DNA of 64,000 nt, from NCBI GenBank assembly GCA_035623685.1, contig DASPSY010000094.1:3305-67304 (forward strand), in the 5' to 3' direction. Shown piece after piece: positions 12,354 to 29,234 of this stretch (position 1 is the first letter of the stretch; every line of letters starts with the position of its first letter). A program made the translations under genes and the position numbers. The notes under the pieces are model-generated. The model made no database searches, was not told where the DNA came from, and worked only from the letters and a program-made list of their open reading frames with translations. The DNA comes from Gaiellaceae bacterium. GTDB lineage: Bacteria > Actinomycetota > Thermoleophilia > Gaiellales > Gaiellaceae.

Positions 12354-16730
<4,377 letters not shown>

Positions 16731-16880
16731 CTGCGCAGCACCTTTCTCGGTCGAAGAGAGGAAGCCCCGCCCTTTGTGGTCGGCTAGCCGGCGAGGGCGG
16801 GAGGTCGAAACCGCCGGCTAGCGAACGCGCTTGCGCGCGGTGCCGACAAAAAGCGTAATCGGTCCGTGCGCGCAGGCCAT
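16731..16880 (-). promoter_or_regulatory. structured 5' leader of gltB (candidate pseudoknot / alternative hairpins)
   Basis: In the minus-strand RNA, GCUAGCCGGCG (16822-16812) pairs with CGCCGGCUAGC (16793-16783), giving 11 bp. This is interleaved with UCCCGCCCU (16802-16794) pairing with AGGGCGGGG (16773-16765). There is also a GNRA hairpin at 16839-16826. The 5' end CCUGCGC (16876-16870) is complementary to GCGCAGG (16736-16730) at the start codon. Confidence 0.4.
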
Positions 16881-16886
16881 GGCGAC

Positions 16887-16915
16887 AGGATAGAACGACC
16901 AGCCGGTCAGATCAA
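16887..16915 (-). promoter_or_regulatory. candidate sigma70-type promoter of gltB
   Basis: Minus strand: TTGATC (16915-16910), 17-nt spacer, TATCCT (16892-16887). It lies in an AT-richer divergent intergenic region. Confidence 0.35.
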
Positions 16916-16940
16916 CCGAAAAACCGCATCAATCCGAAAA
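16911..16940. repeat. direct repeat ATCAA(T)CCGAAAA x2 in the gltB/leuA divergent control region
   Basis: ATCAACCGAAAAA at 16911-16923 and ATCAATCCGAAAA at 16928-16940, spaced 17 bp start to start. The first copy overlaps the predicted gltB -35. Confidence 0.5.
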
Positions 16941-16960
16941 TCTGTAGCGAAGAAAGCGGC

Positions 16961-16989
16961 TTGACAAGGTAAAGCGCGTCAGCCACACT
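16961..16989 (+). promoter_or_regulatory. candidate promoter of the leader-leuA-ilv operon
   Basis: TTGACA (16961-16966), 17-nt spacer, CACACT (16984-16989). The leader ATG at 17001 would then be only about 3-5 nt from the TSS. Confidence 0.45.
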
Positions 16990-17000
16990 TCGGGATCACG

Positions 17001-17087
17001 ATGAGGACACGCACGACTTCCTGCACGCCTGCCCGGACGATCTCGTCCGGTTCGATCGTGCTCGTCCTCTCGATTCTCCCCCTCTAG
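17001..17087 (+). CDS. candidate branched-chain amino acid leader peptide (28 aa)
   Basis: ATG 17001..TAG 17087 reads MRTRTTSCTPARTISSGSIVLVLSILPL. Eight of the last ten residues are Ile/Val/Leu. Codon third positions are mostly G/C. Located 90 nt upstream of leuA. Too short for the ORF track. Confidence 0.5.
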   Translation: MRTRTTSCTPARTISSGSIVLVLSILPL

Positions 17088-17176
17088 GGGGAGACGCGAA
17101 CCACGCGCCGCCGGCGCACACACCCACCGTTCGACGCCACCGGTGCGCCTTCCGGCCACCGCGACGAGGAGGTTCC
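17075..17176 (+). promoter_or_regulatory. candidate attenuator / SD-control structures between the leader peptide and leuA
   Basis: A perfect 8-bp hairpin UCUCCCCC-UCUA-GGGGGAGA (17075-17094) covers the last leader codons and the stop. Competing helices are GCGCC/GGCGC (17105-17117), GGCGCAC/GUGCGCC (17113-17119 with 17143-17149), and CGGUG (17141-17145) pairing with either CACCG at 17125 or CACCG at 17157. The leuA SD GAGGAGG is at 17166-17172. Confidence 0.4.
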
Positions 17177-18322
17177 GTGAGTTCGCGCAAGATCCAGATT
17201 TTCGACACGACGCTACGAGACGGGGAGCAATCGCCGGGCATCGCGCTGCGCCCGGACGAGAAGGTGGAGATCGCCAAGCAGCTCGAGCTTCTCGGGGTGG
17301 ACGTGATCGAGGCGGGCTTCGCGGTCGCGTCACCGGGGGATCACGAAGGAGTTTGTGCCGTCTCGAAGGCGGTGGACACGACCGTCGCCTCGCTATGCCG
17401 GACCCGCCGTGAGGACATCGACGCGTCCGTCGACGCGCTGCGCGACGCGAAGCGCTCGAGACTGCACATCTTCCTCGCAACGAGCCCGATCCACATGGAG
17501 AAGAAGCTCGGCCTCGAGCCGGACGAGGTCGTCGAGCAGGCGGCGTGGGCGGTGGGCTACGCACGCGAACGCGCGGACGAGGTCGAGTTCTCGTGCGAAG
17601 ACGCCACGCGCTCGGATCCCGCGTTCGTGGCTCGTGTGTGCGACGCCGTCGTCGAGGCAGGCGTCGACGTCGTCAACCTCCCCGACACGGTCGGCATCTG
17701 CTTCCCGAACGAGCACGCTGACTTCTTCCGGACGGTGCGCGAGCTCTGCCCGTCCCTCGAGCGGGTCACCCTCTCCGCGCACTGCCACGACGACCTGGGT
17801 CTCGCGGTCGCGAACTCGTTGGCGGCCGTCGAGGCAGGGGTCGACCAGATCGAGTGCACGATCAACGGCCTCGGCGAGCGCGCGGGCAACGCCGCGCTCG
17901 AGGAGGTCGCGATGGCTATGCGCGTTCGAAAGGACCGCTTCGACGTCGTGACCGGTATCGATCCGACCGCGATCGCCGCCACCTCGGCGCTGGTCGCACG
18001 CCTCACGGGCTACGACGTGCAACCGAACAAGGCGATCGTCGGCGCGAACGCGTTTGCACACGAGGCGGGCATCCACCAGGACGGCCTGCTCAAGGACGTG
18101 TCGACCTACCAGATCATCGATCCGCGCGAGCTGGGCTACGCGATGACGCTTCCGCTCGGCAAGCACTCGGGCCGGCACGCGTTCGCACGCGCATGCGCCG
18201 ACGCGGGCATCGAGCTCGACCGAGAGCAGCTCACGAGTGCCTTCGAGCGCTTCAAGGAGCTCGCGGATACCGGCAGACCCGTGACGATCGCGGACGTGCT
18301 CGACGAGGTGGTCGTCGCATGA
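17177..18322 (+). CDS. leuA: 2-isopropylmalate synthase family enzyme, short form (381 aa) lacking the C-terminal regulatory domain
   Basis: MSSRKIQIFDTTLRDGEQSPG..., HCHDDLGLAVANSLAAVEAG and GLGERAGNAALEEV are LeuA/CimA/NifV catalytic-barrel motifs. The protein ends shortly after the GKHSGRHAF subdomain. Confidence 0.8.
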   Translation: MSSRKIQIFDTTLRDGEQSPGIALRPDEKVEIAKQLELLGVDVIEAGFAVASPGDHEGVCAVSKAVDTTVASLCRTRREDIDASVDALRDAKRSRLHIFLATSPIHMEKKLGLEPDEVVEQAAWAVGYARERADEVEFSCEDATRSDPAFVARVCDAVVEAGVDVVNLPDTVGICFPNEHADFFRTVRELCPSLERVTLSAHCHDDLGLAVANSLAAVEAGVDQIECTINGLGERAGNAALEEVAMAMRVRKDRFDVVTGIDPTAIAATSALVARLTGYDVQPNKAIVGANAFAHEAGIHQDGLLKDVSTYQIIDPRELGYAMTLPLGKHSGRHAFARACADAGIELDREQLTSAFERFKELADTGRPVTIADVLDEVVVA

Positions 18323-27886: not shown

Positions 27887-27993
27887 GCTCCGCATCAAGA
27901 GAGGTCGAGGGAACCGGCCCGACGACGCCTCGGCAACCTGCGCGAAGCGCAAGGTGCCAAGCCGGCCGAGCAGCCGCTCGGACGATGTAGAGC
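27887..27993 (+). promoter_or_regulatory. SAM-I (S-box) riboswitch
   Basis: GCUCCGCAUCAAGAGAGGUCGAGGGAACCGGCCCGACGACGCCUCGGCAACCUGCGCGAAGCGCAAGGUGCCAAGCCGGCCGAGCAGCCGCUCGGACGAUGUAGAGC carries the conserved AUCAAGAG-GG-GAGGGA-GGCCC-GA-CC-GCAACC...GGUGC-AA-CC...GAUG core. P1 is GCUCCGCAUC/GAUGUAGAGC. It lies 23 nt before ATG 28017. Confidence 0.85.
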
Positions 27994-28016: not shown

Positions 28017-29234
28017 ATGCCCGCCACGCACCTCTGCTGCACCCGCTGTGCGAACACGCTCCCGCTCGATGCGGTCGTCGCGTGCCCGAAGTGCTTCGCG
28101 CCGCTCGAGCCGGTCTACGACAGCGCCGAGCTCGAGCGAACCTGCACGCGGGAGTCGATCGCGTCCGGCCCGCCGTCGATCTGGCGCTACGCGCCGCTGC
28201 TGCCGGTCGAGCCCGCATCGGCACGGCTCGCACCCGGCCTGACGCCGCTCGTTGGCGCACCGCGACTCGCCGCCGAGCTCGGCGTCCGCGAGCTCTACCT
28301 GAAGCTCGACACCGCGAATCCGACACACTCGTTCAAGGACCGCGTCGTCGCCGTCGCGTGCGCGAAGGCACAGGAGCTCGGGCTCGAGACCCTCGCGTGC
28401 TCGTCCACGGGGAACCTCGCGAACGCAGTCGCCGCGCGCGCCGCCGCCGAAGGGCTCGACGCCGCGGTCTTCTGCCCGGTCGACCTCGAGCGCGAGAAGC
28501 TCGTCGCAACCGCCGCGTACGGCGCGACGATCTACGCCGTGCGCGGCACGTACGACGACTGCAGCCGCCTGACGGTCGAGCTGTCGTTCGAGCTGCCGTG
28601 GGCGTTCGTCAACGTCGGGCTGCGCTCCTACTACTCCGAGGGCTCGAAGACCGTTGGGTACGAGATCGCGGAGCAGCTCGGATGGGAGCTGCCGGACGCC
28701 GTCGTGTGCCCGATCGCATCGGGGTCGCTGCTCTCGAAGGTCGGGCGCGGGTTTCGCGACTTCCTCGAGCTCGGTCTCGTCGACGGTCGCCCGCCGAAGC
28801 TGGTCGGCGGACAGCCGGCCGGTTGCTCCCCGGTTGCGGACGCGTTCGCGGAGGACCGTGCTGTCAAGCCCGTGCGTCCGTCGACGGTCGCCCGCTCGCT
28901 CGCGATCGGGAGCCCGGCCGACGGAGGACCGGCGATCGCCGCAGTCCGCGAGTCGGGCGGATCGATCCACGCGGTCGCCGAGAACGAGATCGGCAACGAG
29001 ATGGCGACGCTCGCGGAGACGACCGGGGTGCTCGGCGAGACCGCGACAGGCGTTACGCTCGGCGCTCTGCGCGAGGCGATTCGCATCGGACGGGTGGGCT
29101 CGGACGACCGCGTCGTCCTGCTCGTCACGGGCGACGGGCTGAAGACGCCCGGCCCGGTCGCGGACCGGCTCGCGCCCGTCGAGATCGAGCCCGACGCCGA
29201 CGCGCTCCTGAACGACCTCGGAGTCGCCGTCTGA
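28017..29234 (+). CDS. threonine synthase-fold PLP enzyme with N-terminal zinc ribbon (SAM-regulated paralogue; MetM-like hypothesis)
   Basis: ATG 28017 with GGAGGAGG SD: MPATHLCCTRCANTLPLDAVVACPKCFAPLEPVYD (CxxC..CxxC). PLP lysine motif NPTHSFKDRVV, plus STGNLANAVAARAA. 405 aa. Confidence 0.8.
   Translation: MPATHLCCTRCANTLPLDAVVACPKCFAPLEPVYDSAELERTCTRESIASGPPSIWRYAPLLPVEPASARLAPGLTPLVGAPRLAAELGVRELYLKLDTANPTHSFKDRVVAVACAKAQELGLETLACSSTGNLANAVAARAAAEGLDAAVFCPVDLEREKLVATAAYGATIYAVRGTYDDCSRLTVELSFELPWAFVNVGLRSYYSEGSKTVGYEIAEQLGWELPDAVVCPIASGSLLSKVGRGFRDFLELGLVDGRPPKLVGGQPAGCSPVADAFAEDRAVKPVRPSTVARSLAIGSPADGGPAIAAVRESGGSIHAVAENEIGNEMATLAETTGVLGETATGVTLGALREAIRIGRVGSDDRVVLLVTGDGLKTPGPVADRLAPVEIEPDADALLNDLGVAV

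Follow-up and report, generated by a model that had tools for sequence, protein, structure and literature searches.

What controls the glutamate synthase gene gltB in a Gaiellaceae bacterium, and does its leader contain a regulatory RNA? The question arises from a stretch of 64,000 nucleotides (nt) of contig DASPSY010000094.1 (assembly GCA_035623685.1), referred to here as the window, in which gltB on the minus strand and a short leuA gene on the plus strand diverge from an intergenic spacer of 446 bp. A sequence-only reading of this spacer had described a gltB leader of ~150 nt with two interleaved helices, forming either an H-type pseudoknot or two mutually exclusive hairpins. Our comparative analysis suggests that the element is probably a leader-peptide attenuator, namely the gltB version of a ribosome-sensing module that is used by Gaiellales-like soil Actinomycetota. 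The family of ribosome-sensing leaders as such is well supported.

The element consists of a short upstream open reading frame (uORF) and four pairing segments, which follow each other in the order A-B-A'-B':

16818-16880, minus strand: uORF for the putative leader peptide MACAHGPITLFVGTARKRVR, with the ATG at 16880-16878, 20 codons and the TAG at 16820-16818
16812-16822, minus strand: 5' arm of helix A, GCUAGCCGGCG; the uORF stop codon constitutes its positions 3-5
16803-16811, minus strand: loop L1, GUUUCGACC, 9 nt, C/U-rich and G-poor
16794-16802, minus strand: 5' arm of helix B, UCCCGCCCU, anti-Shine-Dalgarno-like, abutting A' without a linker
16783-16793, minus strand: 3' arm of helix A, CGCCGGCUAGC, forming 11 bp with GCUAGCCGGCG
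16774-16782, minus strand: loop L3, CGACCACAA, 9 nt, A/C-rich
16765-16773, minus strand: 3' arm of helix B, AGGGCGGGG, G-rich and Shine-Dalgarno-like, 9 nt downstream of A'

As isolated hairpins, A:A' (11 bp) and B:B' (8 Watson-Crick pairs and one GU) have free energies of -22.3 and -15.2 kcal/mol, respectively. Both helices, the two 9-nt loops and the missing linker are located exactly where the sequence-only reading had placed them. That reading treated the ~150-nt leader as untranslated, and this premise is wrong: the leader opens with a 20-codon ORF that had been overlooked.

Related leaders were collected in two ways. Nine gltB leaders (the window and loci L003, L004, L005, L007, L008, L010, L012 and L015) were found solely through the similarity of the GltB protein, by searching with the GltB N-terminus and keeping one genome per species. 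By this search the window belongs among Gaiellaceae-like Actinomycetota. A metagenome scan with a pattern consisting of the two A arms yielded at least 120 loci; all metagenomic counts below refer to the matches listed. In some of the contigs compared, GltB is only ~42% identical.

All nine protein-anchored leaders keep the uORF in frame, at a length of 19–27 codons. Its stop codon, a TAG that is replaced by TGA in L007 and TAA in L008, occupies the same helix position in 9/9 of them. Among the metagenomic leaders, an ATG ORF of 15–37 codons ends at the helix-A TAG in 99 of 107, compared to 1 and 4 in the shifted frames. Those that lack the ATG uORF have a GTG start instead.

The uORF is immediately preceded by a putative sigma70-type promoter:

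16910-16915, minus strand: -35-like hexamer TTGATC, identical in the closest relatives (L134, L164 and L188)
16887-16892, minus strand: -10-like hexamer TATCCT, separated from the -35 by a 17-nt spacer and located 6 nt upstream of the uORF ATG

This promoter had been proposed from the sequence of the window, and its coordinates agree with the placement of the -10 across the family. In 78 of 100 distinct leaders, a TANNNT hexamer ends 6–11 nt 5' of the first ATG; elsewhere within 45 nt upstream such hexamers are nearly absent. Many of the other leaders carry TTGAC-like hexamers 17–18 nt ahead of the -10. No Shine-Dalgarno sequence precedes the uORF ATG in the listed leaders. Because the -10 lies only 6–11 nt ahead of the ATG and a Shine-Dalgarno sequence is missing, we infer that the uORF transcript is leaderless or near-leaderless. 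The uORF itself appears to be translated.

Taken alone, the window leaves the helices within chance, because the whole leader folds with a z-score of only -1.82 and the 64 kb contain 60 inverted repeats (11 nt or longer, within 45 nt). The earlier caution that GC-rich DNA gives rise to chance complementarity is thus justified for the single sequence; it no longer applies after comparison with relatives. In the nine protein-anchored leaders, A:A' is 92.9% paired, compared to 13–57% in shifted registers. Three of its pairs are changed on both sides, including G-C to A-U and C-G to U-A, and its U.G wobbles pair only on the gltB-sense strand. The A-B-A'-B' arrangement is maintained in all nine. 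In L007, the B and B' sequences are unrelated to the others yet complementary (CAGGCCU/AGGCCUG), while L015 and L005 contain C-G to U-A exchanges in B:B'. Covariation in the leaders of gltB orthologues, which had been suggested as a check of the two helices, is thus present in A:A' as well as B:B'.

The metagenomic set provides a view of helix B that is independent of the search, as B:B' lies outside the pattern. In a MAFFT alignment of 82 listed leaders, B:B' is 73.5% paired, and 5 of the 9 pairs show double changes. Pairing over the whole structure amounts to 86%, compared to 23–54% when slid. The CCGCC core of B is conserved although it was not part of the pattern, and the pairs flanking it covary (C-G 36 / U-A 20 at columns 57-97). 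A covariance model derived from this alignment assigns the window 77.6 bits in the sense and 26.3 bits in the antisense orientation. It detects no second copy in the 64-kb window, and no further copies with divergent arms in the window or the contigs compared other than the known ones. The full uORF/B/B' syntax is found in ~109 of the 120 listed loci, and the ~11 loci that matched the pattern by accident are rejected by the covariance model, bar one borderline case.

The strand order A-B-A'-B', which defines an H-type pseudoknot, is found in all leaders compared, with covariation in both stems. The proposal that this arrangement is a conserved cis-regulatory RNA ahead of gltB is upheld by the comparison. 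The loops, on the other hand, vary in sequence and length and do not form an invariant unpaired pocket. Across the family L1 is composed of 55% C, 30% U and 8% G, L3 of 40% C, 28% A and 13% G, and the 14 nt 3' of B' of 41% C, 24% U and 17% G. The gap between B and A' is mostly 0–2 nt. As a rule-of-thumb estimate, the median L3 length of 10 nt should be sufficient to span an 11-bp stem. By the same rule of thumb, the loop lengths are sterically compatible with the simultaneous formation of A:A' and B:B', so the H-type pseudoknot considered earlier is allowed.

The module had been regarded as specific to glutamate synthase. This does not hold, since the same core is found ahead of genes from several other pathways:

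gltB: at least 39 loci listed, and 3 more with an inserted HNH_repeat ORF
prephenate dehydratase (pheA): at least 33 loci listed
threonine-synthase-like pyridoxal phosphate (PLP) enzyme: at least 11 loci listed
small Zn-ribbon protein (CxC...CxxC, 48–52 aa): at least ~14 loci listed
leuC: at least 2 loci listed
chorismate mutase: at least 2 loci listed

The composition of the leader peptides follows the downstream gene. Those ahead of pheA contain 19% Phe overall, and Phe is present at codon -3 in 100% of them. Leader peptides of chorismate mutase contain 15% Phe and 9% Tyr, and those of the threonine-synthase-like enzymes 12% Ile and 17% Leu. The gltB leader peptides are enriched in Lys (5.5%, compared to 1.6% elsewhere, p = 5e-7). 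Within their codons -6 to -2, Lys reaches 9.3% versus 0 and Pro 9.3% versus 2.2%, while Phe drops to 2.7% versus 18.9%. The class-specific codons are located in the last 3–13 codons of the peptide. The uORF of the window carries Lys at -4 and Arg at -5, -3 and -1, and MACAHGPITLFVGTARKRVR contains a single Leu.

Several observations were made on the loci themselves. The 10.8-kb contig L134 contains two copies of the module, one at ~1345 ahead of a threonine-synthase-like gene and one at ~8303 ahead of gltB, so that a single genome carries several copies. An HNH_repeat ORF of ~97 amino acids (aa), a homing-endonuclease-associated domain, is located between the leader and gltB in L012 (~2120-2480), L103, L126 and L156, where it occupies the Shine-Dalgarno and start position that normally belongs to gltB. 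The Zn-ribbon protein (...WCTCEKPLPVHIAERKGAARSVCARCERPLRLQLR..) is conserved, 46–53 aa long and encoded by the first gene, ~40–70 nt after A' (L084, L090, L108-L110, L120, L122, L171, L178, L186, L187 and L200). It has no Pfam or NCBIfam match. Leaders ahead of it show Asn at -3 in 75% of cases, with Gln upstream; ORF calling in these operons is unreliable owing to the GC-rich DNA.

The stop codon within helix A, the codons that track the pathway, the variable loops and the variety of downstream genes together indicate attenuation by a leader peptide rather than an aptamer. A ribosome unwinds mRNA to ~11 nt downstream of the first nucleotide of the P site. With this geometry, a ribosome decoding codon -3 would abut the base of helix A, and once the stop codon entered the A site, all 11 nt of the arm would be unwound. 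Translation of the last 3–4 codons would thus require A:A' to be unzipped. When such a footprint is placed at the stop in a fold of the window, A:A' is lost and B:B' (9 bp) forms.

The route from the ribosome to gltB begins downstream of B':

16753-16764, minus strand: pyrimidine tract CUUCCUCUCUUC, directly 3' of B', without a U-tract
16741-16748, minus strand: gltB Shine-Dalgarno region GAGAAAGG, of a GAAAGG type that is repeated across related leaders
12354-16730, minus strand: gltB, glutamate synthase large subunit, with the GTG start at 16730-16728 (NCBIfam NF008730, E = 1.5e-133 for the first 500 aa); the N-terminus contains ERDACGIGFV
17177-18322, plus strand: short 2-isopropylmalate synthase gene (leuA), the divergent neighbour of gltB

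We propose that A:A' and B:B' can both form as long as A is free of ribosomes, probably in an H-type pseudoknot, which would lock away the G-rich B' and represent the repressive ground state. If the sensed aminoacyl-tRNA is scarce, the ribosome would dwell on the last codons and hold helix A open, the core would be remodeled and expression would rise. With a good supply, the ribosome would terminate and depart, allowing the core to refold to the repressive state. In this model, starvation turns expression on, which is the correct polarity, and the location of the most conserved sensor codon at -3 is accounted for. The opposite wiring can also be drawn: A:A' and B:B' would exclude each other, A:A' would be the 'on' state, and a terminating ribosome would favor B:B' as the 'off' state. 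The candidate signal for the gltB copy is Lys, possibly together with Arg and Pro.

In 8 of the 11 threonine-synthase-like leaders listed, the end of the B' equivalent is -1 to +7 nt from the start codon, and in those leaders B' is the Shine-Dalgarno sequence. Sequestration of B' should therefore repress translation, and control at these genes is most simply translational. At gltB, B' is located 35 nt upstream of the GTG. Given this distance, the core could influence 30S loading or standby binding, Rho-dependent polarity, or both of these. We rank translational or standby control first and Rho-dependent or U-poor termination second, and consider this readout the weakest step of the proposal. 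A fully specified version can be put forward only tentatively, and we would not bet on all of its parts. It envisions terminator-free, 'pseudoknot-gated translational attenuation', in which the ribosome on the last codons of a leaderless uORF mechanically unzips stem 1 of an H-type pseudoknot and frees a Shine-Dalgarno or standby element. Within one lineage, the platform would have been copied ahead of many operons with only the sensor codons retuned, and the gltB copy would report on the glutamate-derived, nitrogen-rich amino acids Lys, Arg and Pro.

A number of points weigh against the proposal. The case is built from sequence and comparison. Conservation of the A and A' arms in the metagenomic set is circular, as they were set by the search pattern, and the peptide counts come from related, non-independent sequences. 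The sensing of Lys, Arg and Pro has peptide composition as its one source, and the gltB leader peptides are depleted in Glu (1.0%) and Gln (0.6%). A:A' and B:B' may coexist in a pseudoknot or exclude each other. The link from the core to the start codon also lacks a visible structural relay: complementarity between the uORF and the Shine-Dalgarno sequence is at chance level over 65 leaders (mean z of 0.2 for gltB and -0.15 for pheA, p = 0.70), the segment from B' to the start is no more structured than expected, and in nested thermodynamic models the accessibility of the gltB Shine-Dalgarno region is ~0.40 at every ribosome position. No terminator-like site was found in 16600-17300, nor a U-run after B' in any gene class. 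Finally, the conservation of A:A' and of the CCGCC/GGCGG core at the level of sequence could reflect a trans-acting factor.

Two relays and a terminator were considered and rejected. A stem between the uORF and the Shine-Dalgarno sequence, of the LEU or Cys type, has z about 0 over the 65 leaders. A hairpin between the pyrimidine tract and the Shine-Dalgarno region shows no excess structure (z about 0.15–0.25), and modeled accessibility stays constant with ribosome position; short CCUUUC...GAAAGG or CCUC...GAGG hairpins are recurrent in the leaders. A canonical intrinsic terminator, i.e. a GC hairpin followed by a U-tract, is absent from the leader, and such terminators are unenriched in the genome.

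The alternative that survives best is a classical transcription attenuator, which we regard as unlikely while taking it seriously. Here B:B' and the pyrimidine tract would act as a U-poor terminator, or as a Rho entry or pause site, and A:A' would be the antiterminator that traps B. A ribosome reaching the stop would melt A:A', B:B' would form behind RNA polymerase and transcription would end before gltB. This scheme draws on the same uORF, the same stop codon in helix A and the same codon bias, and the footprint at the stop does make B:B' form. L1, L3 and the tail are C-rich, G-poor and rut-like. At the four loci with the HNH_repeat insertion, control would persist only if it acts on the transcript. 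The missing U-tract is not decisive. In positions 1-40000 of the window, hairpin and U-tract terminators number 4, compared to 5.3 expected, and 2, compared to 4.4 (shuffled sequences). As they are not enriched, the absence of a U-tract is uninformative and termination may be Rho-dependent or U-poor; the organism probably relies on Rho or on non-canonical termination. Nevertheless, no gene class has a U-run 3' of B'. The helices share no nucleotides and a pseudoknot is permitted, so A:A' need not exclude B:B'. A ribosome stalled at -3, the codon that is Phe in 100% of pheA leaders, would already invade helix A and thus give the 'off' signal of this scheme. The role of B' as Shine-Dalgarno sequence in the threonine-synthase-like leaders also points to translation.

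Less probable still, with roughly the standing of an outside chance, is that A:A' and CCGCC/GGCGG form the site of a trans-acting RNA-binding protein or DNA-binding dimer that co-ordinates amino-acid operons, with the uORF being secondary. Sequence conservation of the A arms and the B core goes beyond what pairing requires, the core lying outside the search pattern, and GCTAGC and CCGGCG can be counted as DNA palindromes. For the LEU element, which is comparable, a protein factor has been suggested (PMC1262725). A DNA dyad is, however, broken by the U.G at columns 36-71 in 18 of the 82 listed leaders, which corresponds to C.A on the other strand. The covariance score is strongly strand-specific, and the arms are 18 nt apart and ~60–100 nt downstream of the promoter. 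A pure operator would leave the invariant stop position and the pathway-tracking peptides unexplained.

It is very improbable that the leader is a riboswitch in which the pseudoknot serves as the aptamer for a nitrogen metabolite. Such a riboswitch would fit a compact, conserved and pseudoknot-capable fold ahead of gltB, and known glutamine riboswitches use pseudoknots. The leader does not match any Rfam family even at E <= 10, however, and the same core is found ahead of genes from unrelated pathways. Its loops lack invariant unpaired positions, and it invariably goes together with a uORF that looks translated and carries pathway-specific codons. A riboswitch-like reading with glutamine, glutamate or 2-oxoglutarate as ligand, as initially entertained, is disfavored by the several gene classes, the uORF coupling and the variable loops.

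The remaining two explanations are hardly credible. Read-through or recoding of the UAG would fuse the uORF to gltB and produce an N-terminally extended pro-GltB. In the window, the uORF and gltB share a reading frame with no stop but the TAG between them, and GltB is made with a cleaved propeptide; but only 17 of 39 listed gltB leaders are in frame, 6 of those with further in-frame stops, and the counts for pheA (7 of 33) and the threonine-synthase-like genes (2 of 11) match chance. Random pairing between GC-rich segments, or a mobile or dispersed repetitive element that ends in terminal inverted repeats, would agree with the fold z of -1.82, the 60 inverted repeats and the several copies per genome (two in L134), and is dismissed because position and orientation are kept between promoter and biosynthetic genes, the helices covary, the 64-kb window has a single copy and ~109 of 120 listed matches show the full syntax.

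Two accessory elements had been described in the leader. One is a GNRA-capped hairpin:

16826-16839, minus strand: GC hairpin CGCGC-GCAA-GCGCG, within codons -6 to -2 of the uORF, clade-specific

The hairpin exists as described and is not conserved: it is found in the closest relatives only, and 49% of its alignment cells are paired, no better than in shuffles. An alternative GCGCGC/GCGCGC register is 70% paired, but this coincides with a GC-repeat periodicity and an overlap with conserved Ala-Arg codons. The other is the complementarity between CCUGCGC (16876-16870) and GCGCAGG (16736-16730), which is present in the window, absent in the five closest relatives and at chance level (z = -0.65).

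The surroundings of the locus contain further RNA elements. On the plus strand, an S-adenosylmethionine (SAM) riboswitch is located at 27889-27991 (70.2 bits); within ~25 nt of its end, GGAGGAGG and an ATG at 28017 follow, with no terminator. A SAM riboswitch close to a start codon and without a terminator implies that translational control is in use here. The product of its gene has an N-terminal CxxC...CxxC Zn-ribbon, as do threonine-synthase-like proteins that elsewhere follow the uORF/pseudoknot leader. Related genomes may therefore use different RNA elements to control this kind of gene.

The divergent leuA has a leader of its own (17001-17176, plus strand). Its uORF MRTRTTSCTPARTISSGSIVLVLSILPL (17001-17087, plus strand) ends with a TAG inside the hairpin CTCCCCCTCTAGGGGGAG (17076-17093). 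An uORF rich in Ile, Leu and Val (ILV), the same hairpin and a conserved downstream block are also found in L003, L004, L007, L008, L010 and L012. This leader is probably the lineage's version of the actinobacterial LEU element. With an ILV-rich uORF whose stop lies in a hairpin, it indicates that leader peptides are a habit of the lineage.

A different conserved gltB leader is observed in other Actinomycetota (L016-L019), ~60–120 nt upstream of gltB. Downstream of a TTGACA promoter, GAGCAAUGGCGCUCC...GGGGCGCCUUUUUU forms a GC hairpin that includes a possible AUG and ends in a true U-run; this leader has no Rfam match.

If correct, our proposal describes a new and widely reused attenuation architecture, in which a leaderless sensor ORF ends inside a pseudoknot stem and a terminator is absent. 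It would be the first candidate for RNA-level control of glutamate synthase in Actinomycetota. The more specific gate model would further imply a route of nitrogen control of glutamate synthase (GOGAT) at the RNA level for which no bacterial precedent is known. To our knowledge, essentially nothing is known about gene regulation in the Gaiellales and Thermoleophilia, a major, uncultured soil lineage. The module offers a natural series of one platform with the sensor codons Phe, Phe/Tyr, Ile/Leu, perhaps Asn/Gln, and Lys/Pro, suited to the study of a terminator-free readout.

How does the element relate to known systems? Scans with Rfam 15, at gathering score on the window and on 15 sister loci and at E <= 10 on 16600-17300, returned only SAM riboswitches, so no family matches the gltB leader. 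A literature search found no attenuator or leader peptide for gltB. The element is not described by any Rfam family or located paper, and the earlier statement that no cis-regulatory RNA is described for actinobacterial glutamate synthase stands on both counts. What is new is the conserved core with the stop in its first stem, pseudoknot-capable and reused across operons; leader-peptide attenuation as such is known.

Glutamine riboswitches (glnA RNA, RF01739, and the Downstream-peptide motif, RF01704) resemble the gltB leader in that they are pseudoknotted leaders of nitrogen metabolism. The gltB leader differs from them in having no covariance match, in extending beyond nitrogen genes, in its coupling to a uORF and in the lack of a conserved ligand pocket.

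Classical attenuators, such as the trp, phe, thr, leu and ilv leaders, share with it a short ORF whose stop lies near or in the first helix arm, and with its sister leaders an enrichment in codons of the regulated pathway. In the ilvB1 leader of M. tuberculosis, the position of the ribosome selects the RNA fold (PMC13236596). Unlike classical attenuators, the gltB leader has no hairpin and U-tract terminator, its helices are interleaved without a common strand, one core serves at least six operon types, the uORF is apparently leaderless and there is no match to an Rfam leader family.

Mycobacterial leaderless polycysteine short ORFs are, according to the account of Canestrari et al. 2020 given in PMC13236596, translational attenuators that sense tRNA charging. 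As far as this account goes, they have, like the gltB leader, no intrinsic terminator, and the stalled ribosome remodels the mRNA and raises downstream translation. Their uORF is described as pairing directly with the Shine-Dalgarno region of the following gene, whereas in the gltB leader this pairing is at chance level and a separate core begins at the stop codon.

Of the elements described so far, the one nearest to the gltB leader is the LEU element upstream of actinobacterial leuA (Seliverstov et al. 2005, PMC1262725). It combines a uORF with a conserved pseudoknot or alternative structure, has no obvious terminator and was left without an explained mechanism. We compared it by its description, since its published alignments exist as figures only. 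Both leaders have a uORF, a conserved pseudoknot or pseudoknot-capable structure between the uORF and the gene, and no terminator. The LEU element is distinguished by its leuA context, a run of Leu codons and a base stem that pairs these codons with the Shine-Dalgarno sequence. The gltB leader, in contrast, is found with gltB, pheA, thrC-like and other genes, contains a single Leu and has no uORF/Shine-Dalgarno stem beyond chance. Its defining trait is the stop codon within the first stem of the putative pseudoknot. The module may illuminate the long-unexplained LEU element, of which the leuA leader on the plus strand of this spacer is a probable relative.

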